A DNA stretch of 58,764 bases from a virus (lineage: Duplodnaviria; Caudoviricetes): positions 1 to 58,764 of IMG/VR virus record IMGVR_UViG_3300017754_002055. The stretch is one strand, 5' to 3'. Both the position numbers and the translations under genes were made by a program. This document shows, piece after piece, positions 30,951 to 58,573 of this stretch (positions are counted from its first letter, which is position 1; every line of letters begins with the position of its first letter). The notes beneath the pieces were generated by a model that searched no databases, had not been told where the DNA came from, and saw nothing but the letters and a program-made list of their open reading frames with translations.

Positions 30951-30986
30951 AAAAGAAAAAGAGGAGTGTCTTTGAAGACACCCCTC
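30951..30986 (-). terminator. Capsid-gene terminator built on the 16-bp palindrome (30966-30981)
   Basis: Minus strand GAGGG-GTGTCTTCAAAGACAC-TCCTC-TTTTTCTTTT directly after the capsid stop. Confidence 0.8.
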
Positions 30987-33611: not shown

Positions 33612-36047
33612 CTATCGAGGTGAGAACTCAGCCAAATCGAAGCCATCTAAACTGTCCTCATTAGACTCAAAATTTACAGCAGGAAGATTGTTCTTTCTTT
33701 GCTCTATTAGTTTTGATTGCTGAGTATTTTGTATGCTTATCCTTTTGTCTTTTGCAGTTTCTTTCACATTCTCCCTTTCTCCTAATACTTGGGAGTTCAT
33801 TTTAGAAAGCTCTTGATTGTAGGCAAACTCTTCAGCCATTAGCTTAGATTTCAAGATAGCTTCTTGTTTCATCTTTTCAATTTCAAATGCCACCTCTGCT
33901 TGTTTAATTTGCATCTTAGCTTGCGACTCCATCTGTATCTTCTGCATAGCAACTTGACCTGCCATCTCTTGAGACTTAAGCTGCTGTTCAGAAACAATAG
34001 CTTGCTTCTGCATAGCCATCTTCTCTTCTCGTTGCTCCTTCTTAGTTCTCTTAAGTTTAAGCAATTGATTCGCAAGTTTAATGTTTCTAATCTCGCGTAT
34101 GTCAATAGCGTCCTCCAAGTTGATGTCTCCTCTTGAAAGAGCCATCTGTATGTTCCCTTCAAGCTGAGCCTTTTGCTCTTCGTCGGGAGATATTTCTACG
34201 AATATTCCGAAGTCATATAGATACAAATCAGAAATATCTGAAAGTATAGATACATTAAACCTGCCGATTTGATTTATAAACTCATCTGTAAAGTCAGCGT
34301 ATTGAAGAATATCCGCAACCCTATATGTAAGGGCTTCTGCCAAAGAGCGATATATGTATAGCCCTGCATCCAAGATGTGTCTTGTTGCTGTATTGGAATT
34401 TAAGGCAGCAAGTTTTTGTAAACCAACCAACGAATTAGGGTCCGGATTAGAGCCGTCACGAGCCTCATTAAGTCCGGTAACAGTTCTAATCATATCCATG
34501 TAGTGGTTATAATTAGCAAGCAACATTTGAGTTTTTGATGCGCCCGAATTAGAAGTGAGCTGAGTTACAGGAACGCGAGCATTATTAAATTCTCCATCCT
34601 GCGTGTAACTTCTTCCTATTACGCTACCTGTTTGAAAGTATAGCCTCAATGCATCCTCGGGATTGTATGCGTTACCTGTCCCCAAGTCAACCTCATTCAG
34701 ACCATCAGCGTCAATAAACACTCCATCGGGGACCACCCTAGCAATAACTTGCTGAAGCTTTAAGTGCGTAATCTGAATAAGGTCTGCAAATGGAATCATT
34801 CTTCTAACCAAAGACTCAATAACACCCTTGTACATTCTTGGAGCGCAAGCAACATACATTGGAAGGGCATGCTGTGTAGCTGATTTTGGTCGAACCATAT
34901 TCTCAGCTAGTTGCCACTTTAAAAGAATGTTTGTTCCCATGACCATAATACCCTCGTACCACACGTCAATGGTTTTTTCAACCCTCTCAAAATTTCCCTC
35001 ATCCATCATTTCTGTGGGAGGATTAAAGTCTTCGTCTTTCTCAATATATCTTACCGAACCATTGTCTAGTTTTTTCTTTTTATATACAATCTTTTTAGTA
35101 GTCTTGTAATTGAAATACATCAATGTGCATGTGTCTCTAAAGAACACACTGTTCTCGTAGAACCTAGCCACATTGTAATAGTCATACCAACCTTGGCTAT
35201 ACTGTGATATTTTTTGAAGGTCTTCTTTGGTTAAGCTTTGGTCTATCTTGTAAAGCTCTGTAAGAGGAAGTGTTTTAATCTCTCCCCAATAGAAGCAATC
35301 TTTGAAGTAAGGGTCCTCTGTATAGCTATAGACAATATTAGCAGGGTCCACGTAAGAAATTTTAACTCCGGCTCCGGGTAAAAATTCATGCTTGGCAACC
35401 TGTATTCCTAAAACAGTTTCATCGTAGTCTAATCTCTTACGCAAGTCCTCATAATGATTAGCATCAAACAATGTATTGATAGCCTCTTCTTCAGCTATCT
35501 CAATAGCGGGCTTATAATTCAATTGCATGTATAGAGACATCTCATCGTCTGTCTCCGGCAATTCATCGGGGTCCATCATGAATGGATTAGCCCCTGTTTT
35601 TTTCTGAATTATTGAGAGGACATCTTTTCCTGCCATTTGAGTTTCAATCATCTCTTGATACTTGTTTCGATTTGATTGAGACATGGCGTCTTGAGCGTAT
35701 GCCTTCACCTTGAATAGGCGATTAGACATTCCATTCACAACAATATCAACAAACTTAGGGATGACCGGAACGGGAGTCCAATCAAGATTCAAATAAGAAA
35801 GGTCCCCATCAATAGCTAATTCATTTTTATATTTAGCTGTTGACTGCTCTCCGCGAGCATAAAGGCGAACACGGTGAAAGTCTCTCCACTGACTGTAGTA
35901 TCTACATGACGTGCCATCTTTTCTAAACCATTCGTACTGAATAGCTTGACCAACCTGTAGTCCGAATGCTTCTGTCGCTTTCTCCGCGTCTGTTGCAAAC
36001 TGACTTGGAAAGCTAGTAGCCGTGATGTCTATTACTATGTCTTTCAT
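33612..36047 (-). CDS. Portal protein
   Basis: 811 aa directly after terminase; PVIPKFVDIVVNG motif; long C-terminal coiled coil. Confidence 0.85.
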   Translation of the reverse strand: MKDIVIDITATSFPSQFATDAEKATEAFGLQVGQAIQYEWFRKDGTSCRYYSQWRDFHRVRLYARGEQSTAKYKNELAIDGDLSYLNLDWTPVPVIPKFVDIVVNGMSNRLFKVKAYAQDAMSQSNRNKYQEMIETQMAGKDVLSIIQKKTGANPFMMDPDELPETDDEMSLYMQLNYKPAIEIAEEEAINTLFDANHYEDLRKRLDYDETVLGIQVAKHEFLPGAGVKISYVDPANIVYSYTEDPYFKDCFYWGEIKTLPLTELYKIDQSLTKEDLQKISQYSQGWYDYYNVARFYENSVFFRDTCTLMYFNYKTTKKIVYKKKKLDNGSVRYIEKDEDFNPPTEMMDEGNFERVEKTIDVWYEGIMVMGTNILLKWQLAENMVRPKSATQHALPMYVACAPRMYKGVIESLVRRMIPFADLIQITHLKLQQVIARVVPDGVFIDADGLNEVDLGTGNAYNPEDALRLYFQTGSVIGRSYTQDGEFNNARVPVTQLTSNSGASKTQMLLANYNHYMDMIRTVTGLNEARDGSNPDPNSLVGLQKLAALNSNTATRHILDAGLYIYRSLAEALTYRVADILQYADFTDEFINQIGRFNVSILSDISDLYLYDFGIFVEISPDEEQKAQLEGNIQMALSRGDINLEDAIDIREIRNIKLANQLLKLKRTKKEQREEKMAMQKQAIVSEQQLKSQEMAGQVAMQKIQMESQAKMQIKQAEVAFEIEKMKQEAILKSKLMAEEFAYNQELSKMNSQVLGERENVKETAKDKRISIQNTQQSKLIEQRKNNLPAVNFESNEDSLDGFDLAEFSPR

Positions 36048-38293
36048 TTAATTAACTGACTTGTTATTCCGTCGTTCTTGTATCTTGCGAAGTTAATACT
36101 AATTTTCGATTCTTTTTTCTCGGGAACGTAAAGGTGCTTTTGATTCGCCATTATAACTAGGCCCGAACTAATAGATGCGTCAAACTTTGTTCTATCATTT
36201 ATATCAAACTTTGCCCAATCTTCAAGGGTTCTAGTGAATGGCATTGTTCCAACTTCGTCTGACTCTCTATATTTTCCCTCTAAGTCAAACCCTACGAACT
36301 TCTCAATATAAGATTCAATTGCAGAAGCATGCGCCTGCTTGACATCCTCTGAAGAGTTGGGTATTCCTCCTAGTTCCTTTTCTGTTTTGCTAAGTTTAGC
36401 ATACGGCTTATCGGGTCTGTTCATAGAGAATCCTCTGTACCCTCTGTTCTTAAAGTGGTACAGCAACCTTGGCTTATTGTTCTCCGCAAGAATCGGCATT
36501 CCATAAAACACACACGCCATCAGTACATCTTCAAAAAATATCTCAGCCGTCTGTGGTCTAGCAATGTACTCAAGGAAGAACTCATTTACCGGAGCTTCAT
36601 CCATGTGAAACTTCGTCATTCCATGAAGCGAGCCGTTAGACCCCCTGCCATCAACTACGGCTGAAATATCATAAGAGTCACAACCAAACGAGCCAAGGTG
36701 CTCATTGCCCGGGAATTTAATCCCATTTCTTATATGCACATTGTTTTGCATGTGTTTCTTCGGGGTCCAACTAACCAAGAATCTTCCCCTTTTATCGGGG
36801 GAGAATATAACCTCAGTATCTTTTATCCCGTCTTTCCACATAAAAGAACCTCGTGTAATGTGATGCTCCTTGATGAGAGTGTCATTATAATCAATCTGCT
36901 GATAAATCTTAGTTAGGTTAAACAGGGCTTGTTTACTCTCATCTCTAAACGCATGTGACTCTGTTCTTGGGAACTGCCTATAAAACTCATTAAGTGCATC
37001 AGCATCATTCTTTAAAGAATCAACTTCTGCCTCCCAATAATCTATTGCACCTTTTGTTATCCACGCTCCGTCCACTCCCTTAACGGGTTCTGCAGGAGTT
37101 CGAAACACAGGCATACCATACAAATCAATAAACCCCTCGAGGTTCCACTCCATTGGTATGAACAACTTGTATAGTCCACTCTTTGTTTGTCCGTTAGCAT
37201 TTCTTGAAGATGTTTTAGAATCCTCATAAATGTCTTTGAAGTTTTGTCCTCCCTTGGCCAATGCATTTGATGTGGACCCCATCATACATTTCCCTATAAT
37301 CTTACTTCCTAATCTCAAACATGTCTTTGTAATCCTCCAATTCTCTTTAATGTTGTTGGGCTTTACCCACTTTCCACTCTCATCATGTACTAAGAGCCTA
37401 AGTTTTTCTCCATCATAAGAGTTGTCCTCTGTATTTCTCCAATCTATTGTGGTGTCCAATCCACTAATAACATTGGTATCAGACATATACATGTTCTTCT
37501 TGGTAATCTTTGAGGCAGGAACACGGAAGGCAAGCTCAGTTTTTGGTTTATCCATACCATCCATTACCGGTTTGAAAAAAAATGGAAGGCGAGTATTTAT
37601 TGGAACCACCTTATCAGTGAACATCTTCTTAGCGTCTCCCCCTGTTTTGGATAGAATGCCTAAACGTGCATCTCTAGCAAGCGTTCCTGTATTGACGCAT
37701 TCAGAAGACGCCATGAACGAGAATCCCGAGCGACGTATCTTAAGGTAGTCCATACCAAAACACCTATTGTCAGCTTTACATGCCTCCCAAAAAAGATATA
37801 AGATTCGATTAGCCTCTCTAAAATCCGGGTATCCAACATCTATACTAGCCCACTGAAGATAGAACCAATGAGACCCGGTGATATAAGTTTTAACCCCATT
37901 GTTCATGAACCAAGCACCCTGTTCCCTGTAGTCAAACTGCTGCTCTATATAGTCTATCCATTTGTTTTTAAACTGAGGTGGCATTTCATTCCACTGAAAT
38001 ATGGATTGAATTTTTGATAGAGGATAAGGAAGCTCTTGTCTTTCCCAATATTGCTCGGATTTAGATGAGTGTCTTTGAAGACACTGCTCGGGCGCTTCCG
38101 GAAGAGCAATAACAATTCCTTCGATACTAATTATTTCTCCAATCTTTCCTGTCTTGGAGATAACAACCATATCGTATTCTTCATTGTATCCGTATATCCA
38201 AGACCTATTGCCGTTCTTTTTTGCAAGTGGGGTCTTTGGAATATAGTCATGAAGAACTCTATATAATATTTTATCTTGAGTTTCTTTCTGCAA
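36044..38293 (-). CDS. terL: Terminase large subunit
   Basis: KIRRSGFS (Walker A variant), LLVHDESGK (Walker B), GST, and RNase H-like GCDSYD...AENN...FDASIS. Confidence 0.9.
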   Translation of the reverse strand: MQKETQDKILYRVLHDYIPKTPLAKKNGNRSWIYGYNEEYDMVVISKTGKIGEIISIEGIVIALPEAPEQCLQRHSSKSEQYWERQELPYPLSKIQSIFQWNEMPPQFKNKWIDYIEQQFDYREQGAWFMNNGVKTYITGSHWFYLQWASIDVGYPDFREANRILYLFWEACKADNRCFGMDYLKIRRSGFSFMASSECVNTGTLARDARLGILSKTGGDAKKMFTDKVVPINTRLPFFFKPVMDGMDKPKTELAFRVPASKITKKNMYMSDTNVISGLDTTIDWRNTEDNSYDGEKLRLLVHDESGKWVKPNNIKENWRITKTCLRLGSKIIGKCMMGSTSNALAKGGQNFKDIYEDSKTSSRNANGQTKSGLYKLFIPMEWNLEGFIDLYGMPVFRTPAEPVKGVDGAWITKGAIDYWEAEVDSLKNDADALNEFYRQFPRTESHAFRDESKQALFNLTKIYQQIDYNDTLIKEHHITRGSFMWKDGIKDTEVIFSPDKRGRFLVSWTPKKHMQNNVHIRNGIKFPGNEHLGSFGCDSYDISAVVDGRGSNGSLHGMTKFHMDEAPVNEFFLEYIARPQTAEIFFEDVLMACVFYGMPILAENNKPRLLYHFKNRGYRGFSMNRPDKPYAKLSKTEKELGGIPNSSEDVKQAHASAIESYIEKFVGFDLEGKYRESDEVGTMPFTRTLEDWAKFDINDRTKFDASISSGLVIMANQKHLYVPEKKESKISINFARYKNDGITSQLIK
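38069..38084. repeat. 16-bp palindrome GTGTCTTTGAAGACAC inside terL
   Basis: Direct read; encodes CLQRH. Confidence 0.95.
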
Positions 38294-47540: not shown

Positions 47541-47810
47541 TTAAAAATAATTATGGACCCATATAGGAGTTTTATCCCCAACATAAGCTCCTTTAACGTT
47601 ATACTCAAAATGCTCAATAGCCTCCTCGTAGTCCATGCCGTCAAGGCATAGCGTCTCAATGCATCTCTTCTCAGAGTACACAAGTCTCATAGACGCCTGC
47701 TCGACACCAATGATTGCATCGTCAAACCCATCAGCCACAAGAAAACTCTCCTCGGGGAATTGCTCAATGATGCATTGAAGCATGGTCTGTTTGTTATTTA
47801 GATTGCTCAT
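47541..47810 (-). CDS. Hypothetical phage protein
   Basis: ADGFDDAIIG..LVYS..EEAIEHFEYN..GAYVG..TP. Confidence 0.7.
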   Translation of the reverse strand: MSNLNNKQTMLQCIIEQFPEESFLVADGFDDAIIGVEQASMRLVYSEKRCIETLCLDGMDYEEAIEHFEYNVKGAYVGDKTPIWVHNYF

Positions 47811-49419
47811 AGACTCTTGCCATTGTTATGATTGCATTCGTACTAAGGATGGTTGTCGCTACACTCACAGCGTTTTGAAGCGCACTGCGTGTAACCTTAA
47901 GTGGGTCAATGACGCCCATCTCCATTAGGTCTCCAAACCCACCGGTCTTGATATTAAGCCCATGACCTGCAGGGTGCTCATTAAGATAGACCTCCTCTGA
48001 AAGACCGACGTTTTGAAGTATCTGACGAAGTGGAGCCTTGAGCGCTTGTCTCATTATGCTGAACGCACACTCCCACTCAGCGGCATATTTCTCCGGTATT
48101 GACGTTGTTATTAGCTCGTCAATGTTAATCTCATAGAGTGCCTTGCCGGCTCCCGGAAGGACGCCCTCCTCAAGCGCTGAACGAACCGCACACACCGCAT
48201 CGTCAACCCTGTCGTATAATTCTTTTTGCTCTAGGTCAGTATTACCACCAACAAATATGACACCGATGCCACCTGTCAGTGATGCGATACGCTCTAACAG
48301 AAAACTCTTCTCAGACTTTTTAGTTGCATTTTCATAAGCGTCACGCAATTGCTGCACACGCTCGTCAGCCTTCTCTTGATTTGAGCGAACCGATGATTTG
48401 ACAATAATGGTTTTGTCTCTTGACACAATAACCTTTGAGGCATGGCCAAGGTCAGCAGAGCTCATAATGCTCAAGTCGTCACCTGTCTTCTCAGAGAAGT
48501 ATGTTGCCCCAACGCTCACAGCAATGTCATGCATAAGCTCATGCTGCTTGTATCCGAAGTTAGGTGGAGGAACCACGCAAACCTTAAGGTTACCCTTCAT
48601 GACGTTTGCAGCAAGTGTGTTGACCACATTCGCATTACATGGCGCAATGATAAGTAACTTCTTTCCCTCAGTGATGATAGGCTTGAGGATGTTCTCAATC
48701 TGAAGGATATTAGAAATCTCCATGTCAGCCACAAGCACCATAGTGTCTTCAAAGACACACTCGTCCTTCTTTTGCTCGTTGGCAAATAGCGGAGATAGAT
48801 ACCCTCTGTCAAACTTAATACCGTGCGTAGTCTCTGCGTAGGTGTCAGAAGTCTGTGAGCGCTCAACAGTGACAATACCATTACGCCCCACCGACTTATA
48901 GACGTCAGAAATAATACGCCCAACCTCACGGTCATTGTTGGATGAGATTGTCGCTACGTCAAATAGCATTGAGTTAGATAACTTCTTGCTGCGTCGTCTT
49001 AGCTTCTCCACTGCCTTGTCGCTTATGTCCACTAGCGCACGTAGCACCTCAGTCTTGTTCATACTCTCGTCCATTAGCTCAACACCGCTGAGCACAAGAG
49101 ACTCTGTGAGCACAATTGCAGTGGTCGTACCATCACCTGCTGCGGTAGCAGTTTGGTCTGCCGCCTCCTTCATCATGCGAACCGCAAGGTTCTCAACCGG
49201 GTCCATAAGGTCAACTGCCTTAGCAACCGTAACCCCGTCCTTTGTGACGGTGATACCGTGAGTGTGATGTGGAGACTCAATAAGCACCGTATTCCCTCCG
49301 GGACCTAGTGTGCTTTTGACAGCAGAGGCCATCTTGACCACGCCATCTACAAGCTTGTTTCTGCCTGTGTCGCCGAAGTATAGGTCCTTCGGGCTGTAAC
49401 CTTGTTGCATATCTACCAT
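47794..49419 (-). CDS. groEL: Chaperonin GroEL
   Basis: TLGP.G, VTKDGVTVAK, AGDGTTTA, FDRGYLSP, RVDDAV.A and GVIDP.KVTR motifs; lacks the GGM tail. Confidence 0.97.
   Translation of the reverse strand: MVDMQQGYSPKDLYFGDTGRNKLVDGVVKMASAVKSTLGPGGNTVLIESPHHTHGITVTKDGVTVAKAVDLMDPVENLAVRMMKEAADQTATAAGDGTTTAIVLTESLVLSGVELMDESMNKTEVLRALVDISDKAVEKLRRRSKKLSNSMLFDVATISSNNDREVGRIISDVYKSVGRNGIVTVERSQTSDTYAETTHGIKFDRGYLSPLFANEQKKDECVFEDTMVLVADMEISNILQIENILKPIITEGKKLLIIAPCNANVVNTLAANVMKGNLKVCVVPPPNFGYKQHELMHDIAVSVGATYFSEKTGDDLSIMSSADLGHASKVIVSRDKTIIVKSSVRSNQEKADERVQQLRDAYENATKKSEKSFLLERIASLTGGIGVIFVGGNTDLEQKELYDRVDDAVCAVRSALEEGVLPGAGKALYEINIDELITTSIPEKYAAEWECAFSIMRQALKAPLRQILQNVGLSEEVYLNEHPAGHGLNIKTGGFGDLMEMGVIDPLKVTRSALQNAVSVATTILSTNAIITMARVYEQSK
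48743..48758. repeat. 16-bp palindrome GTGTCTTCAAAGACAC inside groEL
   Basis: Direct read; encodes part of CVFEDT. Confidence 0.95.
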
Positions 49420-50212: not shown

Positions 50213-50435
50213 AATGTATTGTTTTTATGTGTAATACAAATGTAGGCAAATTTTTAGAACGAGATACATAGGGTGTTGGGGTAATACCACGTCGCACGCG
50301 AGCCGGGCCCCTACCGAAAGCGACCTGCTCCAAAGGGGTGGGGGGTGCAATTCGCCGCCGCCCGTCTAACTTTTTGCCGTTTTTCCTGTGGGCCATTGCC
50401 GCCGCCGCCCTGTAGCACAACAGCGCCGCCGCCGC

Positions 50436-50485
50436 CCTGTTACCTGTTACCTGTTTGCCCTGTCACCTGTCACCTGTCACCTGTT
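50436..50485 (+). repeat. Heptamer tandem array CCTGT(T/C)A, about 7 copies, next to (GCC)n runs
   Basis: CCTGTTA CCTGTTA CCTGTTT GC CCTGTCA CCTGTCA CCTGTCA CCTGTT. Confidence 0.85.
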
Positions 50486-50520
50486 CGCCGCCCATTCGCG
50501 GCCCGTTGGCCCTGTTTATT

Positions 50521-50536
50521 GTGTCTTCAAAGACAC
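50521..50536. repeat. 16-bp palindrome GTGTCTTCAAAGACAC
   Basis: Direct read; in the divergent intergenic region. Confidence 0.95.
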
Positions 50537-50708
50537 TTCGTACAAAGTTCGTCTAAAATTCGTCTACTGATCGTAGAACGTTCGTCTAATAGCAGCCCCA
50601 CCACAAGTACACCCCACAAACTGAAATATTTTTCACCTCTACAGGCCGCACCAAATAAGGCCTTCAAAAAAAAATGAATAAAAACGCAAACTTTTTTTTC
50701 CCTAGGTA

Positions 50709-50738
50709 TTGATTTGAACGAAATTTGAACTATATTTG
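50709..50738 (+). promoter_or_regulatory. Early promoter 1
   Basis: TTGA...TATATTTG (50731-50738) upstream of the first early gene. Confidence 0.7.
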
Positions 50739-50798: not shown

Positions 50799-51440
50799 AT
50801 GAGTAATTTACTATCAATTGAGGCAAATTTCCTCAATTTACCACAGGTGAAACAGGGCTTACACCTACAGGAGCTTAACGCTATCAACAAAAAAATGGCC
50901 AAGGCCCACAAACAGCGTTTTATCCATAGCCTAGAGCTAAGCAAGGTAGCTGTTCAGTCTTTCGAGTGGTTTAGCTCGGCCGAGGGACAGGCCCTGTGCA
51001 ACGAAGAGGGTATCGCTTGGAACAGGGAAACCTTTGCCGACAAAGTGTTCGGAGTGAAAAACTCCTACTTTGGCAAATTACTCAAAGTAGGTGGAATGGA
51101 CGCTGTAGTGGTGGAAACGTTCAACACTAAATGTGATGAGGCCGAGGCCAACAATCAAAAGTGTGACCGCAGCGTTGCAGGCCTTATAAACTTTGCGAAA
51201 GCGGGTATTGAGTCTGACGTTGTTATCGCTGAGGCCGAGTCTGAAGGTGATATAGAAGAGACGACAGAAGAGGCCGTAGAGCCAACCACAGACTGTGTAT
51301 TCACAATGACCCACAAGGCCGCGACAGGCAACGTTGCAATGAGTATTGATAGCATGGGCACAATGACCACTGCAAACAGCCGCGAAGAGCTAAAAGAGGC
51401 TCTAAAATTCGCTCTTACTCGCCTAGGATATTCATTTTAA
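50799..51440 (+). CDS. First early protein, possible HTH
   Basis: Long ORF after the promoter; WNRETFADKVFGVKNSYFGKLLK is HTH-like; acidic linker. Confidence 0.65.
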   Translation: MSNLLSIEANFLNLPQVKQGLHLQELNAINKKMAKAHKQRFIHSLELSKVAVQSFEWFSSAEGQALCNEEGIAWNRETFADKVFGVKNSYFGKLLKVGGMDAVVVETFNTKCDEAEANNQKCDRSVAGLINFAKAGIESDVVIAEAESEGDIEETTEEAVEPTTDCVFTMTHKAATGNVAMSIDSMGTMTTANSREELKEALKFALTRLGYSF

Positions 51441-51442
51441 CC

Positions 51443-51458
51443 GTGTCTTCAAAGACAC
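51443..51458. repeat. 16-bp palindrome GTGTCTTCAAAGACAC
   Basis: Direct read, 2 nt after the stop of 50799..51440. Confidence 0.95.
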
Positions 51459-51475
51459 ATAAAACACACACAGCA

Positions 51476-52384
51476 ATGAGCACAGGAATAGTATACACAG
51501 TAACAGGAAACCAAGAACGCGGACAGGTAACACTTTACCACCACAAACCGTATCCGCTTTTCTTGAACAAGACAAAGTACCGTATTGACGTTGCAGGCCT
51601 CAAACCTGTAACAGCACGTGAGGCCCTAAAAATAAACGGAGACTCAATTGAGTCGCGTTTTACGGTAGGCTTTGAGGTTGAGAAAAACCAATTGCACAGG
51701 GGCGCCGTTCGTGAGTATGAGCTGTTCTGTGGTTTCGAGCGCGACAGTTCATGCGGCTACGAGGCTGTCACGCATATTTTGCCGCTGTTGCCGTCGGGCC
51801 TGTGGCGCACAAAAGTGTATGACATGATGTACAAGGCCGAGCGCATAATCGATGACCGCTACAGCCCGTCAAACAGAAATTGTGGAGGCCACATTACACT
51901 AGGCTGCGACGGTTTCACAGGTGATGACCTACGTGAGGCCGTGAGAAAAAACGCGGGTATTGTTTTGGCCCTGTTTCGCAACCGTTTGTCAAATCAATAC
52001 TGTAACCGTAACTTGACCATGTTAAGCAGCTCAGACTCACATATGCATGCAAACGGGTACCACTTCAAGTATCAATTGGCCTTGGTAAAAGGTGATTGCC
52101 TAGAGTTTAGATTGCCGTCAAGGTTTGAGAGTGTTAAGCAAATGATGAGACGTTACGAGCTGTTCTACGAGCTAGTTAACTACAGCGTGAATAAGCCTAA
52201 CGGCACGTTCAAGGCCTTTCTCAAGCATATAACGCCGCTGATAGTGTCCATGTACAATGGCGACGCTGCAAAGGCCGGTAAGGTCATCGAACTAGCAGAA
52301 AGGTTTCAAAAGTTCATCAATACCGGCGAATGGACCGACGAGGTTAGGGCCTACGTGAGCGGCAACACAAGCGGCCTCCTGTAA
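51476..52384 (+). CDS. Putative amidoligase (COOH-NH2 ligase type 2)
   Basis: GFEVE, D.S..E.VT, CGGHI and LEFRLP motifs; ATG start at 51476. Confidence 0.7.
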   Translation: MSTGIVYTVTGNQERGQVTLYHHKPYPLFLNKTKYRIDVAGLKPVTAREALKINGDSIESRFTVGFEVEKNQLHRGAVREYELFCGFERDSSCGYEAVTHILPLLPSGLWRTKVYDMMYKAERIIDDRYSPSNRNCGGHITLGCDGFTGDDLREAVRKNAGIVLALFRNRLSNQYCNRNLTMLSSSDSHMHANGYHFKYQLALVKGDCLEFRLPSRFESVKQMMRRYELFYELVNYSVNKPNGTFKAFLKHITPLIVSMYNGDAAKAGKVIELAERFQKFINTGEWTDEVRAYVSGNTSGLL

Positions 52385-52393
52385 AGGCCTCAT

Positions 52394-52423
52394 GCGAGGG
52401 GTGTCTTCAAAGACACTCTTCGC
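52394..52423 (+). repeat. Hairpin containing the 16-bp palindrome (52401-52416)
   Basis: GCGAGGG-GTGTCTTCAAAGACAC-TCTTCGC. Confidence 0.9.
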
Positions 52424-52426
52424 TTC

Positions 52427-52475
52427 CTGTAACAGGGTGAGTGCCCTGTCTGATGAGCTCAAAAGAGCGAAACAG
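52427..52475 (+). ncRNA. Hammerhead ribozyme HHR1 (type III)
   Basis: CUGUA^ ACAGGG-UGAGUG-CCCUGU CUGAUGA GCUC-AAAA-GAGC GAA ACAG; full core; predicted cut after 52431. Confidence 0.93.
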
Positions 52476-52507
52476 TAACCACAAAACATAATCAAAATCA
52501 AAAAGCT

Positions 52508-52702
52508 ATGTTCTACATTGGCAAAACTTACAAGCATGGTCAACACCAAATGACCCGCGAATTTTCAACCGAGTATTCAGCTCTCAATTGGATTGACGCA
52601 AACTCCCGTCACTATGGATTGCACGTTAGTGAAGACGGTTACAGCGCCTCTTCAGAGGATGACCTCGGGTGGTATTTCGAGATAGAGGAGTGCGAATACT
52701 AA
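52508..52702 (+). CDS. Hypothetical early protein
   Basis: AAATC-rich leader directly after HHR1. Confidence 0.65.
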   Translation: MFYIGKTYKHGQHQMTREFSTEYSALNWIDANSRHYGLHVSEDGYSASSEDDLGWYFEIEECEY

Positions 52703-52717
52703 GCCCTAGTTCGGGCC

Positions 52718-52751
52718 GTGTCTTCAAAGACACACTTCGCCTCCTGTAACA
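52718..52751 (+). repeat. 16-bp palindrome (52718-52733) plus truncated ribozyme-cassette remnant
   Basis: GTGTCTTCAAAGACAC-ACTTCGCCTCCTGTAACA matches the HHR1 cassette to just past the cleavage site, then diverges. Confidence 0.8.
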
Positions 52752-52783
52752 ACAACAATCAGAAACAAATCAAATCAAATCAC

Positions 52784-52915
52784 ATGCGTAAATTAATTAT
52801 CTTCATCATTGCAGCGGCTGTTCTTGCTTCATGTTCTAACAGCGCGAAACTAAGCCATTCACATTACACGAAAGGCATGACCAAAGGTCAAGACGGGTGC
52901 GCTTGGCACAAGTAA
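52784..52915 (+). CDS. Small lipoprotein
   Basis: MRKLIIFIIAAAVLAS-C: basic N-terminus, hydrophobic core and lipobox. Confidence 0.65.
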   Translation: MRKLIIFIIAAAVLASCSNSAKLSHSHYTKGMTKGQDGCAWHK

Positions 52916-52965
52916 GGTTAACTGACGAGTCTTGACTAGACGAAACGCCGTGAGGCGTCTTAACC
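52916..52965 (+). ncRNA. Hammerhead ribozyme HHR2 (type I)
   Basis: GGUUAA CUGACGA GUCU-UGACU-AGAC GAA ACGCC-GUGA-GGCGU C^ UUAACC; predicted cut after 52959. Confidence 0.92.
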
Positions 52966-52981
52966 AAATAAATAATTTATC

Positions 52982-53158
52982 ATGACAACTTACTTCATTT
53001 GCAACACTGACAGCTACGGCCAAAGAACAGGCAGCTATAGCTCTATTCAACTAAGCGAAGGCGATATCAAGATTGATAGCCACGGTAACAAGCTCACACA
53101 GGGCGGCACATTTCTTTACGAGAGCGAGCTAGAAATCATGCGAGCGTGTCAAGGTTAA
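52982..53158 (+). CDS. Hypothetical early protein (58 aa, not in ORF track)
   Basis: MTTYFICNTDSYGQRTG...; bracketed by HHR2 and HHR3; its stop TAA is part of HHR3 stem I. Confidence 0.65.
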   Translation: MTTYFICNTDSYGQRTGSYSSIQLSEGDIKIDSHGNKLTQGGTFLYESELEIMRACQG

Positions 53159-53202
53159 CTGATGAGCCGTTATTCGACGAAACGCCGTGAGGCGTCTTAA
53201 CC
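53153..53202 (+). ncRNA. Hammerhead ribozyme HHR3 (type I)
   Basis: GGUUAA CUGAUGA GCCG-UUAUU-CGAC GAA ACGCC-GUGA-GGCGU C^ UUAACC; one C-A mismatch in stem II; predicted cut after 53196. Confidence 0.87.
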
Positions 53203-53219
53203 ATCATAAACAATTTACC

Positions 53220-53594
53220 ATGAGTACAACAACCCGCGCAATTGGACAGCGCAAATCATTAACGAGAGCCTCAGAGGCAGTGCCATTCAAGACTAACAGA
53301 CTAGAGGTATCTAGACTAGTCAAGGCGCAAACCGACGCGATAACAAGCGGCGTGTGGGATTTCCCAATGGACTACAAATTCGCCAACAGCGGCCAAGTTT
53401 GGGACGCCGTGAACGAGGGCAAGAGCGTGCAAATGTTCGTGCGTCAGTGCATGATTGAGTTCGGCACAATTACAGGAGCTCTTCTAGGTAGTCAGTTCAA
53501 CCACGTATCGCATAGCAGCAAACAAGCAATTCGCAAGGGCGTCATGAGAGCACAGCAATACAAGCAAATTATTGACCAACTAAAACAGAAATGA
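53220..53594 (+). CDS. Hypothetical early protein
   Basis: ATG start MSTTTRA just after HHR3. Confidence 0.65.
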   Translation: MSTTTRAIGQRKSLTRASEAVPFKTNRLEVSRLVKAQTDAITSGVWDFPMDYKFANSGQVWDAVNEGKSVQMFVRQCMIEFGTITGALLGSQFNHVSHSSKQAIRKGVMRAQQYKQIIDQLKQK

Positions 53595-53767
53595 TGACCA
53601 CAAAAATCAAACAGTTCGCAGCGGCGTGCGTGCTAATTGCACTACTTGTCATTGGCAGTTCACTTGACAAGCAAACACAGCTGACTGAGTGCGTACAAAA
53701 CAGCGACGGAACGGACGCACAGTGCGAAGAGTGCTACAAAAAAGTATACGGCGAGTACCCTAAATAA
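53591..53767 (+). CDS. Small membrane-anchored/secreted protein (58 aa, not in ORF track)
   Basis: ATGA overlap; hydrophobic N-terminal segment, Cys-rich C-terminus. Confidence 0.55.
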   Translation: MMTTKIKQFAAACVLIALLVIGSSLDKQTQLTECVQNSDGTDAQCEECYKKVYGEYPK

Positions 53768-53837
53768 TTTAGGGGCCGTAACACGCTGAGAGACAACAGA
53801 TTAACGAGGGTTGAGCTGGAATTGTTAATAACTTTTA

Positions 53838-53880
53838 TTGACTTCGTTCAATTCTCGTTGTATCTTTGTCGAAAATTCGT
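53838..53880 (+). promoter_or_regulatory. Early promoter 2
   Basis: TTGACTTCGTTCAATTCT....GTATCTTTGTCGAAAATT; near-identical to 56008-56050. Confidence 0.8.
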
Positions 53881-53931
53881 ACAAATAAATATAAAACTTA
53901 ATTAGGGGTGCGCCTATAACGCACAAACATC

Positions 53932-54243
53932 ATGAAACAATACAGACACATTGAAGGTAACAACCATTTGAAGATTGAAGTTTACTACAACAAAGGTGGC
54001 ATGAATTATTTTTCGGGAAACACAGACAAGCGCGGGTATTGGCTCAGCATTATAAGGGTAGAGCGAGAGCAAAGCCCCATGGGATACACAACCGAGAGCT
54101 TTACGGTGTTCGGTGGTGGTAACCGTCGCATGTTCTTGCATGAGGTCAAGAGACAAAGCGACAAAGCCTATACTCAAGCGGTGGAGATAGCTAAAGGAAA
54201 GATTGACGAGCTATGCGAGGTGGTTCTTGCAGGGTCGAGATAA
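53932..54243 (+). CDS. Hypothetical early protein
   Basis: YYNKGGMNYFSG...RGYWLS; follows promoter 2. Confidence 0.7.
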   Translation: MKQYRHIEGNNHLKIEVYYNKGGMNYFSGNTDKRGYWLSIIRVEREQSPMGYTTESFTVFGGGNRRMFLHEVKRQSDKAYTQAVEIAKGKIDELCEVVLAGSR

Positions 54244-54302
54244 GAGATAAAAGAGACGCGAGGTGGTAACTCGTTGTTGTGTATGTGTTTTAGCAAAACA
54301 GT

Positions 54303-54326
54303 GGCGGTGTCTTCAAAGACACTGCC
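54303..54326 (+). repeat. Hairpin containing the 16-bp palindrome (54307-54322)
   Basis: GGCG-GTGTCTTCAAAGACAC-TGCC. Confidence 0.9.
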
Positions 54327-54380
54327 TCCTGTCTCAAGGTGTGCACCTTGACTGACGAGCTCCGAAAGGACGAAACAGGA
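54327..54380 (+). ncRNA. Hammerhead ribozyme HHR4 (type III)
   Basis: UCCUGUC^ UCAAGG-UGUGCA-CCUUGA CUGACGA G(C)UCC-GAAA-GGAC GAA ACAGGA; predicted cut after 54333. Confidence 0.9.
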
Positions 54381-54401
54381 AACTAAAAAATTAAAAACAA
54401 C

Positions 54402-54587
54402 ATGGCAAAGTGTATTCTATTTTTCTACATCATTGTCGGCAAGGTTGAGCGAAGCGACAACCTGTACACCATTCATACCGACGGCAAAACCTACGAGCAT
54501 GCATGCGAGGGCGAGACTCTCAATTGGATTGTGACGGGTGAGTTTATTTACGACGACTTCAAATGCGAGTGTAACGAAATCAATTAA
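54402..54587 (+). CDS. Hypothetical early protein
   Basis: A-rich leader after HHR4. Confidence 0.6.
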   Translation: MAKCILFFYIIVGKVERSDNLYTIHTDGKTYEHACEGETLNWIVTGEFIYDDFKCECNEIN

Positions 54588-54590
54588 AAC

Positions 54591-54920
54591 ATGAGGTACG
54601 CAAAACTAATTTCTAACAACGAGGCTACAATTGTCACTGAAGACGGTGGAGTAGCTACTGTACATCACAACGGACAAAACCTAGTCACCACCTACTATCA
54701 ATTGAGGGCCGAGCAGTTCGACGACGACATGTGGGACATGCTCCAAGAGGGTAAGCAATACCTAAAAGATTGGAGGCACAAACAAGAGGTTGACGAGGAG
54801 ACAATTCATGCAGCGCTAGAGTGGCTGTGTCCAACTGAGCGCAATTGGGTCGAGGAGGACTACTACCTGTTTACCACAGAGTTTAATCACCAACAAAATA
54901 AACGGAGGGAAAACCTATGA
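54591..54920 (+). CDS. Hypothetical early protein
   Basis: Operon packing. Confidence 0.6.
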   Translation: MRYAKLISNNEATIVTEDGGVATVHHNGQNLVTTYYQLRAEQFDDDMWDMLQEGKQYLKDWRHKQEVDEETIHAALEWLCPTERNWVEEDYYLFTTEFNHQQNKRRENL

Positions 54921-55201
54921 TGCATGCAACCAAGCTTAAAAAAGCGGGCGGTATACTTGAGATACGCCACAACGACGAGGGCGACGCAGTGTACGTTTTT
55001 ATCAAGAGAAAAAAGGCTAGGGTATTTCCTTCATTAGAGGGGCTAATATCAAGCGTATACTTCGGAGTGGACTCAGAGCATTTCACTTGTCAAGACAGCG
55101 AACTATTCGAGCTGTATGAGGGCGGAGACTATGAGTACAAGAAGCTACGAAACAGAAAAGAAAATCCCGAAAATCCAAACCAATTAAAGTTATGGCAGTA
55201 G
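54917..55201 (+). CDS. Hypothetical early protein
   Basis: ATGA overlap. Confidence 0.6.
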   Translation: MMHATKLKKAGGILEIRHNDEGDAVYVFIKRKKARVFPSLEGLISSVYFGVDSEHFTCQDSELFELYEGGDYEYKKLRNRKENPENPNQLKLWQ

Positions 55202-55434
55202 AACAATTAGCAGCAGAGCTCGAGCTCGAGGGCAAGTATGGGTACTTTGAGTACATCATGGAGAGCGTGTCCAATGGACAGAACAAACAGGCAAGAGAAC
55301 TATACGAGGAGCTCACAATTACTGAGGCGACTGAGTTCTTCGAGTGGGTCGAGGCTAGTTACCATTACGAGGCGGACAGCGACAAGGTTCGCGGCCTTGA
55401 GATGGAGCACCTAAGACTCAAGCTAAGCAGATGA
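55192..55434 (+). CDS. Hypothetical acidic early protein
   Basis: YFEYIMES..NGQ.KQARELY. Confidence 0.6.
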   Translation: MAVEQLAAELELEGKYGYFEYIMESVSNGQNKQARELYEELTITEATEFFEWVEASYHYEADSDKVRGLEMEHLRLKLSR

Positions 55435-55440
55435 ACAAAA

Positions 55441-55466
55441 GCGGAGTGTCTTCAAAGACACTTCGC
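55441..55466 (+). repeat. Hairpin containing the 16-bp palindrome (55446-55461)
   Basis: GCGGA-GTGTCTTCAAAGACAC-TTCGC. Confidence 0.9.
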
Positions 55467-55515
55467 CTGTAGCACGGTGTGCGCCGTGCCTGACGATACC
55501 AAAAGGTTGAAACAG
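55467..55515 (+). ncRNA. Hammerhead ribozyme HHR5 (type III, variant stem II)
   Basis: CUGUA^ GCACGG-UGUGCG-CCGUGC CUGACGA UACC-AAAA-GGUU GAA ACAG; U-U in place of the usual G-C at the base of stem II; predicted cut after 55471. Confidence 0.8.
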
Positions 55516-55536
55516 AAACTAAAAAAACAATTACAC

Positions 55537-55809
55537 ATGGTAAAAAGCACAATGAAATTTATCATTGAAGACAGGGACGGGGAGCTATTCTTTGTCGCGT
55601 CTACAGCGGGCGGCAAGGTATATGAGGCCCATATATCCGACCAAGAGGTTGACATATTCGACTGCATTGAGACGTTCATGAGCGAATACAACAACCTGTT
55701 CAGAGGCAAGAGCAAAGCAAAGACCGACGCATACCACAGAGTGGCGCCGCTGAATAGCACACTGCCGCCTATAGAGAAAATCAAATGGACATCAACAACA
55801 ACAGACTAA
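55537..55809 (+). CDS. Hypothetical early protein
   Basis: ATG start MVKSTMKF after HHR5; the track's GTG start lies inside the ribozyme. Confidence 0.6.
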   Translation: MVKSTMKFIIEDRDGELFFVASTAGGKVYEAHISDQEVDIFDCIETFMSEYNNLFRGKSKAKTDAYHRVAPLNSTLPPIEKIKWTSTTTD

Positions 55810-55810
55810 C

Positions 55811-55963
55811 ATGAGCAACAACATCACACGAGCAAGTCAATTCAACCTTTCAAGGTGCATTTACTTTTGGACAGAACAAACACTCACCAACTGCAAAGAC
55901 AAGGGAGGCTCATTCAACTTAGAGCTATACTTGAGATACTTAGATGCAATACGAAGGTCTTGA
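55811..55963 (+). CDS. Small hypothetical protein (50 aa, not in ORF track)
   Basis: MSNNITRASQF..GGSFNLELY..YLDAI; starts 1 nt after the upstream stop. Confidence 0.5.
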   Translation: MSNNITRASQFNLSRCIYFWTEQTLTNCKDKGGSFNLELYLRYLDAIRRS

Positions 55964-56007
55964 GCTTATTAAGAATCATTATAAGTAAAAAAAAGTTACA
56001 ATAAAAC

Positions 56008-56050
56008 TTGACTTCGTTCAATTCTTGTCGTACCTTTGTCGAAAATTAGT
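56008..56050 (+). promoter_or_regulatory. Early promoter 3
   Basis: TTGACTTCGTTCAATTCT....GTACCTTTGTCGAAAATT; near-identical to 53838-53880. Confidence 0.8.
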
Positions 56051-56106
56051 TTAATTCATCAGAGTTCTGTGTCTATTTAGATGCTGCTCGCAAATCAAAT
56101 CAAATT

Positions 56107-57219
56107 ATGTGCGTCATAATCATCAAACAAAAAGGAATGCAACTTGCCAAAGGAGTGCTAAAAAGTTCAGCCCGTATCAATCCCCATGGACTAGGCGTAG
56201 TGTGGCTTGACACTTTCCAAGTAGAGTATTATGACTCTAAGAAGTACGCGGTGCTGCAGACCGAGCGTCCATTTATAGCACACTTCAGATACGCAACAGT
56301 AGGCGCAATCAACCAAGAGAACACGCACCCATTTACGTGCGGTAAAAATAAAAGTGAGTGGCTCATGATGAACGGGACCATTGCAGGACTAGGCAACAAA
56401 GTCAATTCAGATACCAAGGTATTGGCTGAGAAGCTAGGCGACACGCCTCGTCATACATGGAAAGAACAGCTAGAGAAGTATGAGTGCCGCTTTGTTACAA
56501 TCAACACACGCAACAGGACGTTTCAAGTATACAACCAAGACCTGTGGATACAACGTGACGGTGTGTGGTATTCAAAAGACAACGTGCTAGAAGACCATTT
56601 GGTGGCCGTGTACGGGACACTCAAGAAGGGCAACTCCAACTACTACAACTACCTTACAGGTTCTAAGTACATAGGCAAGGGACATACCAAGGACAAGTAC
56701 CCATTAATAATTGAGGGACTGCCGTACTTAATTGAGAAGAAGGGTGTGGGTTATAACGTGGAGGTGGACGTATTCAAAGTGAGCGACTCAAGACTCAAGG
56801 ACCTAGATAGATTAGAGGGACATCCTAATTGGTACTGTAGAAAGCAAGTGGACATCAAGACAAGCAAGCGCACACTAACATGTTGGGTGTACTTTAACTT
56901 GAGAGAGTTATCCGAGGGCAAGACTTTCCATGAGACCTATACCCAAGAGCAAAGGAAATTTGACAAGTGGTGGGAACAGCCTAAGTTACACACACCAATC
57001 AAGGCGACAAGCGACAAGGCTGTGAAGACAGGGTTCAAGAAGCTAGAGCTGTTCGACGACTACTATGACCATCATGTGAGCGACTCAGACTTTGACGTGA
57101 CAAACGAGAAGCCTATGTGTATCTGTTGTTATCACGACTTAGAGCATGACGGGCACTCTAACTACCATTGCAGTGGGTGTGGTGGGTGGTTCAGTGAGAG
57201 CGAGATTATTGTAGCATAA
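56107..57219 (+). CDS. Class II glutamine amidotransferase fused to gamma-glutamylcyclotransferase (AIG2-like) with a C-terminal Zn ribbon
   Basis: Ntn Cys2 (MC), HFRYAT.G, HPF, NGTI and SDT; then VAVYGTLKKG and LDRLEGHP; CxxC..CxxC tail. Confidence 0.85.
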   Translation: MCVIIIKQKGMQLAKGVLKSSARINPHGLGVVWLDTFQVEYYDSKKYAVLQTERPFIAHFRYATVGAINQENTHPFTCGKNKSEWLMMNGTIAGLGNKVNSDTKVLAEKLGDTPRHTWKEQLEKYECRFVTINTRNRTFQVYNQDLWIQRDGVWYSKDNVLEDHLVAVYGTLKKGNSNYYNYLTGSKYIGKGHTKDKYPLIIEGLPYLIEKKGVGYNVEVDVFKVSDSRLKDLDRLEGHPNWYCRKQVDIKTSKRTLTCWVYFNLRELSEGKTFHETYTQEQRKFDKWWEQPKLHTPIKATSDKAVKTGFKKLELFDDYYDHHVSDSDFDVTNEKPMCICCYHDLEHDGHSNYHCSGCGGWFSESEIIVA

Positions 57220-57232
57220 TCAACCTTTAAGT

Positions 57233-57256
57233 GGCGGTGTCTTCAAAGACACTGCC
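57233..57256 (+). repeat. Hairpin containing the 16-bp palindrome (57237-57252)
   Basis: GGCG-GTGTCTTCAAAGACAC-TGCC; identical to the 54303 copy. Confidence 0.9.
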
Positions 57257-57308
57257 TCCGTCTTAGGGTGTGTGCCCTAACTGAAGAGCGCCGAAAGGAC
57301 GAAACGGA
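57257..57308 (+). ncRNA. Hammerhead ribozyme HHR6 (type III)
   Basis: UCCGUC^ UUAGGG-UGUGUG-CCCUAA CUGAAGA GCGCC-GAAA-GGAC GAA ACGGA; imperfect stem II; predicted cut after 57262. Confidence 0.85.
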
Positions 57309-57335
57309 ATTAAATCAAATCAAATCAAAATCACA

Positions 57336-57743
57336 ATGAGACAAAGAGCCTCAGTAACAGAAAAGAAGTATGCGGCATTTATAAATGACTGCTACGAACA
57401 AAAGACTTTTGACCTACGACAGCTGCTGCAAAAGCACAGGGTTGACGGTTCGCTTATTAGCACCCTATCTTCAATGGACCTTGTTGTGTCGGTAAGAAGC
57501 GGAGTGTATAATTGGGTCGGGGACTTTCCTCTGACACCTAATAGCATTGAGCTTATCATATACAGGCACAGAGAGAGGGCCAAGGCGTACCGATTAAAGA
57601 GAGAAGAGAAGGTTATACTTAGGCGTGTGGGTCCTGTAGCTCCGGGACATCAAGAGCCTACCATCACAGAGCAGCAAGCTGTTGACTTTCTAAAGTCCAT
57701 TGGCGGCTACGAGATTTATAAAGTAGAACGAAAACAAGTCTAA
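57336..57743 (+). CDS. Hypothetical early protein
   Basis: (AAATC)n leader directly after HHR6. Confidence 0.65.
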   Translation: MRQRASVTEKKYAAFINDCYEQKTFDLRQLLQKHRVDGSLISTLSSMDLVVSVRSGVYNWVGDFPLTPNSIELIIYRHRERAKAYRLKREEKVILRRVGPVAPGHQEPTITEQQAVDFLKSIGGYEIYKVERKQV

Positions 57744-58174: not shown

Positions 58175-58573
58175 ATGCAGATTAAAGTAACGCGAGAAAT
58201 CCCAAGAGAAATCCTTGAGAACGTATTCATCACAGCCCTTGAGGGCGGCAGCAACTATTGGTACTTCATAGGTCGTGACGCCATAAAAATAATAACAGAG
58301 GCCGTGCCTAATCAGAAGGGCTTATCTTTTTCAGAGGCCATCTTCAAGGCTGTCATGGACCATGGGTGTGAGCTACCTATCAGAGATAGTGACGACGCAT
58401 CAGAGGTTATCGGGACACTCAGCGCGAGGACAATGCAAGAGAGACTCCAAGCGCTTTCAGAGAACGAGGACTACTCATGGGTCATAGAAGCAGAGCTGTC
58501 AGAAGAGGGCGACGCATGCAGCAGTGACATCATGTTCCAAGCCATGTGCCTAGGAGAGGTTATATACAGCTAG
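58175..58573 (+). CDS. Hypothetical phage protein
   Basis: TALEGGSNYW ... DA..SDI.FQ...GEVIY motifs. Confidence 0.7.
   Translation: MQIKVTREIPREILENVFITALEGGSNYWYFIGRDAIKIITEAVPNQKGLSFSEAIFKAVMDHGCELPIRDSDDASEVIGTLSARTMQERLQALSENEDYSWVIEAELSEEGDACSSDIMFQAMCLGEVIYS

Follow-up and report, generated by a model that had tools for sequence, protein, structure and literature searches.

The 58,764-bp virus record IMGVR_UViG_3300017754_002055, a complete record with 123-bp direct terminal repeats (here called the window, that is, the whole stretch of DNA analyzed), carries four cassettes in which an RNA hairpin is fused to the 5' side of a type III hammerhead ribozyme. DNA containing this phage sequence comes from freshwater metagenomes; among RNA data sets, none was found that contains the region 51300-57400. 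The hairpin and the type III hammerhead form a conserved unit that is common to dozens of related uncultured phages, and the ribozyme is tied to a hairpin, whereas the hairpin is not tied to the ribozyme. Among the uses of hammerheads in phages, this module represents a new and widespread variant. Judging from the sequence, we give a probability of roughly 0.55 to the reading that the cassette acts as an RNase-independent intercistronic processing module in the early polycistronic transcript, with the hairpin capping the new 3' end.

All four cassettes lie on the plus strand. Direct reading and folding confirmed the hairpins that a first-pass annotation of the window had placed at positions 52394 to 52423, 54303 to 54326, 55441 to 55466, and 57233 to 57256, as well as its claims that every type III hammerhead lies directly 3' of such a hairpin and that neither of the two type I hammerheads has one (0/2 in the window). 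Each hairpin has the 16-nt palindrome GTGTCTTCAAAGACAC as its core, which is extended by 7 bp (including two G-U pairs) in hairpin 1, by 4 bp in hairpin 2, by 5 bp in hairpin 3, and by 4 extra pairs in hairpin 4; the hairpins measure 10 to 14 bp. Hairpin 4 is identical to hairpin 2 over 30 nt, hairpin 2 lies 0 nt from stem III, and the minimum free energy (MFE) structure of cassette 4 also has a 0-nt junction to the ribozyme. The hammerheads extend from 52424 to 52478, 54327 to 54380, 55467 to 55515, and 57257 to 57308. All four have an intact CUGANGA...GAAA core and an NUH cleavage site (GUA or GUC); hammerhead 2 contains a bulged C in stem II, and hammerhead 3 has a U.U mismatch at positions 10.1/11.1. 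Cleavage is predicted after A52431 (52431/52432), C54333 (54333/54334), A55471 (55471/55472), and C57262 (57262/57263). Given these positions and the ends of the hairpins, the 5' product would keep a tail of 8, 7, 5, and 6 nt past the hairpin in cassettes 1 to 4, and the product ends are as the first-pass annotation had predicted them, the upstream product ending in the hairpin plus a tail of 5 to 8 nt and the downstream product beginning with stems I and II. The distance from stop codon to hairpin is 9, 59, 6, and 13 nt in cassettes 1 to 4, the stop codon being that of early gene B in cassette 1, the one at 55434 in cassette 3, and that of the GATase/GGACT fusion gene in cassette 4. The next ATG follows the ribozyme after ~30 (52508), 21 (54402), 21, and 27 nt (57336). 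The annotation had listed neither the copies of the 16-mer outside the cassettes nor a relic cassette without a ribozyme (52711-52751, plus strand), with 82% identity to cassette 1 across 51 nt (family D6). The 16-mer core of the relic (from 52718) is perfect and the 5' strand of stem III (CCTGTAACA) is retained, but pairing of the extension has been lost, as have stems I and II.

On the evidence of covariation, the type III hammerheads and the sense-strand RNA hairpins are real. We aligned 16 type III hammerheads, 4 from the window and 12 from relatives (alignment A1). In this alignment, 97.3% of the cells pair and double changes occur in 12/14 pairs; none of 500 shuffles was as good, and slid controls were 36 to 49% paired. 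The covariation supports a three-helix fold with looped stems I and II and an open stem III. A covariance model built from A1 scored the four window copies at 65 to 75 bits (74.9, 65.4, 68.7, and 67.5 for copies 1 to 4). Rfam at a relaxed E-value gave 37.5, 35.1, and 25.3 bits for hammerheads 1, 2, and 4, versus a gathering score of 48.5 (RF00008), and missed the copy at 55467; type III hammerheads of the relatives score up to 47.6 bits. These subthreshold scores are due to the long loop 1 and short stem II of the subfamily. The G10.1-C11.1 pair that closes stem II is present in 11 of the 16 aligned ribozymes; the other five have U.U or A.A there, and their stems covary normally. This replacement is a natural core-adjacent variant, the window example lying at 55490-55513. 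The extension arms of the hairpins covary as well: 93.1% are paired, versus 83.8% in shuffles (0/500 as good), with 38 double-change cells versus 13.8 in shuffles. The arms contain 26 G-U pairs and only 2 U-G pairs, which argues for RNA structure on the sense strand, since a G-U pair is an A.C mismatch on the other strand.

The dependence of the ribozyme on a hairpin extends beyond the window. We analyzed the window together with five related genomes, taken whole (six genomes; 347,295 bases in all). A hammerhead-only model found 16 matches in them, and a hairpin lay directly 5' of stem III in 16/16. Three of these matches lay outside the training set and carry a one-mismatch core, the hairpin GAGCGG-GAAA-CCGCUC, and a stem with a replaced apical sequence, respectively. 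The hairpins of two of the 16 are unrelated in sequence, and GGUGU-AUCUC-ACACC is among the variants in the six genomes. Viral contigs were then scanned with a hairpin-blind pattern comprising the hammerhead core and stem II only, which avoids ascertainment by the palindrome. The scan gave 119 stretches and, from these, 111 non-redundant ribozymes, 99 of which were type III by explicit stem tests; 11 matches that failed the type III test included two type III ribozymes with imperfect stems and seven clear type I ribozymes. A hairpin of -8 kcal/mol or better ended within 3 nt of stem III in 76/99 type III ribozymes, compared with 5/99 in controls shifted 40 nt upstream, 0/99 in downstream controls, and 115/990 in shuffled controls. 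The 16-mer (up to 2 mismatches) was present in only 29/99, and a hairpin was still found in 50/70 of the others. With ribozyme-constrained folding, a hairpin of -6 kcal/mol or better was found within 10 nt in 78/99. Of these 78, 65 had a 0-nt gap between hairpin and stem III, and gaps of 1, 2, 3, and 7 nt occurred in 6, 5, 1, and 1, respectively; stem III was mostly 4 to 5 bp long, and the predicted tail on the 5' product was 5 to 7 nt in 73/78. The hairpins were diverse, with 74 unique sequences in 38 apical clusters and with the loops UCAA (25), GAAA (9), UUAA (6), GCAA (3), UUCG (3), and many singletons. Independent assortment of hairpin and ribozyme among relatives, which the first-pass annotation had named as the finding that would speak against a fused module, thus held in one direction only: the palindrome is independent of the ribozyme, but the ribozyme is not independent of a hairpin. 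Four contigs (L212, L273, L287, and L289) contain a conserved type III group without an abutting hairpin, in which a terminator with a T-run lies 22 to 24 nt upstream. The hammerhead of the cultured Flavobacterium phage elemoA lies in a divergent intergenic region, in the 5' untranslated region of the first gene, with neither an upstream cistron nor a hairpin, and one Elemovirus phage has a single hammerhead and no 16-mer. In the uncultured record MW202828 (77% terminase identity), neither hammerhead nor 16-mer was found.

The gene context was analyzed in flanks of 900 nt for 80 loci, of which 69 were type III ribozymes with at least 600 nt of upstream sequence. A same-strand open reading frame (ORF) of at least 60 codons ended no more than 70 nt upstream in 52/58 hairpin-bearing copies, versus 4/69 in the shifted control, and the distance from its stop codon to the hairpin was 6 to 9 nt in 32/52 and 5 to 11 nt in 38/52. 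Downstream, an ATG-led ORF of at least 40 codons was present in 62/69, at a median distance of 24 nt. The 36 nt past the ribozyme were unusually unstructured (mean of -2.15 kcal/mol, versus -5.14 kcal/mol for shuffled upstream segments). In the window, the plus strand of the early region was searched for the Bacteroidetes-type promoter pattern TTG-N17-21-TAnnTTTG, and only three matches were found, each at the head of a gene block. These promoter candidates would serve a first (50709 to 50738), a second (53838 to 53868), and a third (56008 to 56038) early operon, all on the plus strand; the second lies within a 43-nt repeat (family D2) and the third within the second copy of that repeat. With promoters at these block heads, all four cassettes would be internal to three predicted operons, and transcription would include the hairpins. 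The relatives conserve early genes A and B, the GATase/GGACT fusion gene, and the gene at 58175-58573; for most genes located between gene B and the fusion gene, the five relatives have no homologue. Gene B is followed by a cassette in 6/6 genomes, in one of them with a GAAA-loop hairpin, and the fusion gene in 4/6; cassettes bracket a hypervariable block of small genes.

The palindrome itself is a separate, lineage-wide element. The window has 13 copies of GTGTCTTCAAAGACAC (11 exact and 2 with one mismatch), and 28 matches were counted on both strands with up to 3 mismatches, versus 0.80 expected (0/100 shuffles had as many). Four of the 13 copies are linked to a ribozyme, one belongs to a terminator, one to the relic, three are bare and intergenic, and four lie inside long genes. 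The view of the palindrome as part of the ribozyme could not be upheld with only 4/13 copies in the window and 14/75 in the six genomes linked to a ribozyme; nor is it specific to the ribozyme, since the ribozymes of relatives use unrelated hairpins (GNRA, UUCG, and other stems). The terminator copy (30961 to 30986, minus strand) sits atop a canonical intrinsic terminator after the major structural gene, with 11 pairs (five extra) followed by TTTTTCTTTT. One bare copy lies between genes A and B (51443 to 51458, plus strand), 18 nt before the ATG and without extension or ribozyme; another lies at 2501, and the third (50521 to 50536, plus strand) in a divergent control region (50400-50600), where about six tandem CCTGTYAC units are followed by the bare 16-mer and then by three TTCGTCTA units. 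This region may be an origin or an operator array. The copies inside genes are found in the terminase large-subunit gene (38069 to 38084, minus strand; sense, encoding CLQRH), the DNA helicase gene (7061 to 7076, minus strand; antisense, with VFED on the gene's sense strand), the GroEL-like gene (48743 to 48758, plus strand; antisense, present in 3 genomes), and the gene for a giant (3292-aa) protein (one copy). The terminase and helicase sites are in the same place in 6/6 genomes, and each of the five related genomes has 9 to 15 copies (up to 1 mismatch).

When viral contigs were scanned for it, the exact 16-mer was present in more than 162 stretches. Among the matches listed, there were 164 non-redundant sites: 16 were ribozyme-linked, with a mean of 4.4 extra pairs, 16 were strict terminators, with a mean of 5.6, one was an inverted terminator, and 131 were "other," with a mean of 0.98, about the chance level. 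Since extra pairs exceed chance only at ribozyme and terminator sites, extended arms mark the copies that work as RNA hairpins. In the terminase, the 16-mer sits in a variable linker and is exact, with identical codons, in 18/47 anchored relatives (L308-L387); 5/47 have 1 or 2 mismatches, and 24/47 have a different peptide. One relative (L375) has GTGCCTTCAAAGGCAC in the terminase, with two synonymous changes that keep the palindrome. These data point to selection at the nucleotide level inside the gene. The central dinucleotide varies (CA, TA, or CG) and the element can be inverted, which is compatible with a symmetric binding site as well as with a bare stem. We also considered that the 16-mer points towards the genome ends; this fits the window (3 minus-strand copies on the left and 8 plus-strand copies on the right) but fails in the relatives and was rejected.

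How might the fused cassette work? Host RNA polymerase would transcribe a polycistronic early message that contains the cassettes, and the hammerhead would cut itself cotranscriptionally and so separate the cistrons. The upstream message would then end in a hairpin of 10 to 14 bp plus a tail of 5 to 8 nt with a 2',3'-cyclic phosphate; such a tail may be too short for a 3' exonuclease to engage and would be blocked by the cyclic phosphate, so that the upstream mRNA would be protected. The downstream message would begin with a 5'-OH on ribozyme stems I and II, which would form a structured 5' cap, followed by an unstructured A-rich leader and, ~20 to 30 nt on, the next start codon. The hairpin would stack end to end on the short stem III (4 to 6 bp) and should thereby aid folding of the ribozyme. 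Its sequence would not be part of the mechanism because any stable hairpin serves; this lineage would fill the hairpin slot with an all-purpose 16-nt palindrome that is also used in terminators and elsewhere. Cleavage in vivo, stabilization of both products, and stacking are all inferred, as is the insulator role that the first-pass annotation had proposed.

The alternative with the most bearing on the hairpin is that it is mainly a folding aid, which stacks on the short stem III and shields the ribozyme from upstream coding sequence or the terminating ribosome, with 3' protection being incidental. The 0-nt junction in 65/78 modules with a stem III of only 4 to 5 bp, MFE or centroid folds that put the hairpin directly against stem III, the finding that any stable hairpin serves, and a hairpin start 6 to 9 nt past the stop codon, within the reach of a terminating ribosome, are all in line with this idea. 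However, ~18 to 23 of the 99 related type III ribozymes lack a hairpin and do not have a longer stem III, the conserved group mentioned above has only a distant terminator hairpin 22 to 24 nt upstream, the elemoA ribozyme has none, and a 0-nt gap is equally expected under selection for the shortest 3' tail. That folding is its main role is in our view rather unlikely. Capping is favored over a purely structural role because the type I copies, which would end the upstream product in their own stem III, lack the extra hairpin; because the elemoA hammerhead, which has no upstream cistron, lacks it too; because ribozymes without a hairpin lack an upstream ORF somewhat more often (4/11, versus 6/58 for hairpin-bearing copies; Fisher P = 0.046); and because stem III is not lengthened in compensation where the hairpin is missing (5.0 bp, versus 4.7 bp in hairpin-bearing copies). 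No single one of these four observations is decisive, and a dual role, with capping and coaxial stacking, is likely. Several points weigh against the capping module. None of the four type III copies reaches the Rfam gathering score, and at that score Rfam reported none of them; the U.U mismatch at 10.1/11.1 may slow catalysis of one copy. The blind sample represents one stem II subfamily, and, with many related phages among its members, its counts are not independent events. The folding algorithm itself partly favors a 0-nt gap, and the similar stem III length neither supports nor excludes a folding role. Moreover, 7/11 hairpin-less type III ribozymes still follow an ORF, and the hairpin is therefore not obligatory. 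The limits on tail length for 3' exonucleases are known from Escherichia coli, not from Bacteroidetes.

Other explanations concern the 16-mer, the neighboring transcription units, or the repeats. If the 16-mer were a recognition site (RNA or DNA) for a phage or host factor that gates cleavage or product fate, processing would be regulated. The core is letter-perfect in 11/13 window copies while the flanks vary, it recurs 9 to 15 times per related genome with the fixed places in terminase and helicase described above, the identical CLQRH codons and the one compensatory synonymous double change speak for it, the relic keeps a perfect core after loss of extension and ribozyme, and bare copies lie 15 to 23 nt upstream of start codons. 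But the 50/70 ribozymes that have an abutting hairpin without the 16-mer, including GNRA and UUCG tetraloops, indicate that the module can do without this sequence; the central CA occurs in either orientation; two relatives (77% and 45% terminase identity) have no copy; and searches with Pfam and PHROGs over 72 ORFs gave no obvious palindrome or hairpin binder, only a DnaA-C-like helix-turn-helix protein (398-700), VRR-NUC, PDDEXK, and Sak. We regard this as improbable. The wider version, in which the 16-mer is the cis-element of a lineage-wide regulon read by a dedicated factor, so that one recognition hairpin would serve in terminators, 5' leaders, the terminase and helicase sites, and the hammerhead foot, and switched processing would make this a protein-gated natural hammerhead, is a long shot that we rate only slightly higher. 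A letter-perfect palindrome within essential genes points to an unrecognized control layer in a large group of aquatic Flavobacteriia phages. The hairpins could also be weak or factor-dependent terminators or attenuators, with the ribozyme only tidying read-through transcripts. The same core does top the canonical terminator at 30961-30986 and many terminators in relatives, and the hairpins sit just past stop codons. However, no T-run follows any of the four (2 to 4 T in the following 8 nt), T-runs are present at the genuine terminators of these genomes, the place expected for the U-tract is taken by the start of the ribozyme, and a sigma-70/terminator scan called none of the four on the plus strand while it ranked the 30961-30986 copy first in its region. 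This makes a terminator role very unlikely. The main role might instead be on the downstream gene, where a new structured 5'-OH end near the start codon would free an A-rich leader for Shine-Dalgarno (SD)-independent initiation or protect the 5' end, the hairpin being secondary. The closely spaced ATG-led ORFs and the unstructured 36 nt past the ribozyme agree with this, and for RNA viruses there is a report of ribozymes that stimulate the initiation of translation (PMC13725137). Such a role leaves the conserved 5' hairpin with its 0-nt junction and the hairpin-less type I copies unexplained, and as the principal function we consider it doubtful at best; it is compatible with, and not exclusive of, capping. 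The first-pass annotation had further proposed that the ~80-nt near-repeats are recombination joints that shuffle early genes. Circumstantial support exists: the cassettes bracket the hypervariable block in the syntenic positions given above, cassettes 2 and 4 have 30 identical nt in common, and the phage encodes a Sak-type annealing protein. On the other side, no recombination breakpoint has been placed at a cassette, selection on RNA structure is evident from the covariation, and most cassette pairs are just 63 to 75% identical; we hold this idea to be highly improbable. An N4-type hairpin promoter for a virion RNA polymerase, considered for the 3292-aa protein, would require a hairpin on the template DNA strand with a transcription start just downstream of it, and was rejected: pairing is kept on the sense strand (26 G-U versus 2 U-G), candidates for host-type promoters lie 0.4 to 1.7 kb upstream, and the giant protein matches no solved polymerase.

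The type I hammerheads differ from the type III copies in their upstream flank. The first (52916 to 52965, plus strand) scored 25.8 bits, versus a gathering score of 34 (RF00163), and has no upstream hairpin; its MFE structure is the hammerhead fold, with stem I open and stems II and III closed, cleavage is predicted after C52959, and the upstream product would terminate in the ribozyme's own stem III hairpin. The second (53153 to 53202, plus strand; family D5) is 89% identical to the first and also lacks a hairpin. It has a C.A mismatch in stem II, its MFE structure is not the hammerhead fold, and cleavage would follow C53196. The two flank a small ORF (52982-53158). No type I hammerhead was found in the five relatives with Rfam (E up to 1) or by a scan for the core motif. 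In the hairpin-blind sample, 1/7 clear type I hammerheads had an upstream hairpin. Two contigs of other phages (L204 and L225) have non-type-III hammerheads a few nucleotides past the 3' end of a tRNA gene, which suggests ribozyme-made tRNA 3' ends.

Processing of early phage transcripts at hairpins has a precedent in phage T7, whose early mRNA is cut between genes by host RNase III within a long hairpin, leaving a protective 3' hairpin. As in T7, a polycistronic early transcript would be cut between genes and the upstream mRNA left with a 3' hairpin; unlike in T7, the proposed cut is a self-cut beside the hairpin, not in it, with cyclic-phosphate and 5'-OH ends. In RiboJ-type insulators, a hammerhead with an added downstream hairpin standardizes mRNA ends, decouples neighboring parts, and serves the following ribosome-binding site. 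The cassette likewise combines a hammerhead with an extra hairpin, but here the hairpin is upstream and would serve the preceding gene, and the module is natural and conserved. With intrinsic terminators it has in common a GC-rich hairpin just past the stop codon, and true terminators of this genome carry the same 16-mer core at their top; unlike in terminators, the ribozyme replaces the U-tract, and the 3' end would come from cleavage, not from termination. REP/BIME elements are scattered repeated palindromes whose intergenic copies can stabilize upstream mRNA. The 16-mer is also a repeated palindromic element scattered through the genome, but it occurs inside genes at conserved positions and fused to ribozymes, and there is no evidence of mobility.

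Multiple hammerheads that flank phage and prophage genes have been described, and cutting of long transcripts into gene-length mRNAs was proposed as their role (Perreault et al. 2011, PMC3088659). As in those phages, the hammerheads here are clustered between single genes or short blocks of phage genes; in contrast, a hairpin fused to stem III is the rule for the type III copies here and is not described in the accessible part of that paper, and the module keeps a tight spacing to the preceding stop codon and the following ATG. The function of hammerheads in bacteria and phages is called open in a 2019 review (PMC6765202). The first-pass annotation knew of no description of the fused module, in agreement with our literature search, which found no hairpin-fused phage hammerhead in sources other than subscription journals and PDF supplements (e.g., the 2011 alignments of Perreault et al.); the 16-mer string was not found in the search either. 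With ~80 distinct natural examples, a hairpin fused to stem III, placed a few nucleotides past the stop codon and ~24 nt before the next start codon, is a testable design rule. If the capping module is real, the ribozyme would act as punctuation within operons and the new 3' end would receive its cap from the hairpin, with no need for a host RNase; the cassette would then be the natural counterpart of engineered ribozyme insulators and could provide compact expression parts for Bacteroidetes, where such tools are scarce.

The minus-strand genes of the window span ~8.7 to 49.4 kb, as assigned with Pfam and PHROGs. They include the genes for the terminase large subunit (36044-38293), the portal (33612-36047), the major structural protein (31000-32430), a 1577-aa virion protein, a protein with a crAss-type muzzle C-terminal domain (21682-22506), the 3292-aa protein (DUF7178; 8697-18575), and a phage-encoded GroEL-like chaperonin (47794-49419; PHROG E = 4e-134). 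The 3292-aa protein gave no match to any solved structure, polymerases included; the gene order around it and the muzzle-domain protein resembles crAss-like structural modules. On the plus strand, a block that starts at 50.8 kb and reaches the right end has ~19 genes, mostly small and of unassigned function, among them gene A (50799-51440), gene B (51476-52384), and the GATase/GGACT fusion gene (56107-57219). The cultured phages closest in their terminase are Flavobacterium phages of the genus Elemovirus (45.5% identity), followed by Cellulophaga phages; megablast with the early region and blastn with one cassette gave no relevant match to named phages. ARAGORN found no tRNA anywhere in the window, and a tRNA-like element at 2105-2201 (plus strand) was reported by Rfam with 37.2 bits and has a 40-nt insertion in the middle. 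Two overlapping plus-strand ORFs (3122-4273 and 4111-5538) match the N- and C-terminal halves of one 804-position PHROG (primase/helicase-like); a frameshift, a programmed shift, or an error in the assembly could account for this. Finally, AAATC-repeat leaders (CAAATCAAATCAAATC) lie directly 5' of start codons at 52766-52789, 56091-56114, and 57311-57334; they recur in relatives and may be SD-independent translation leaders.

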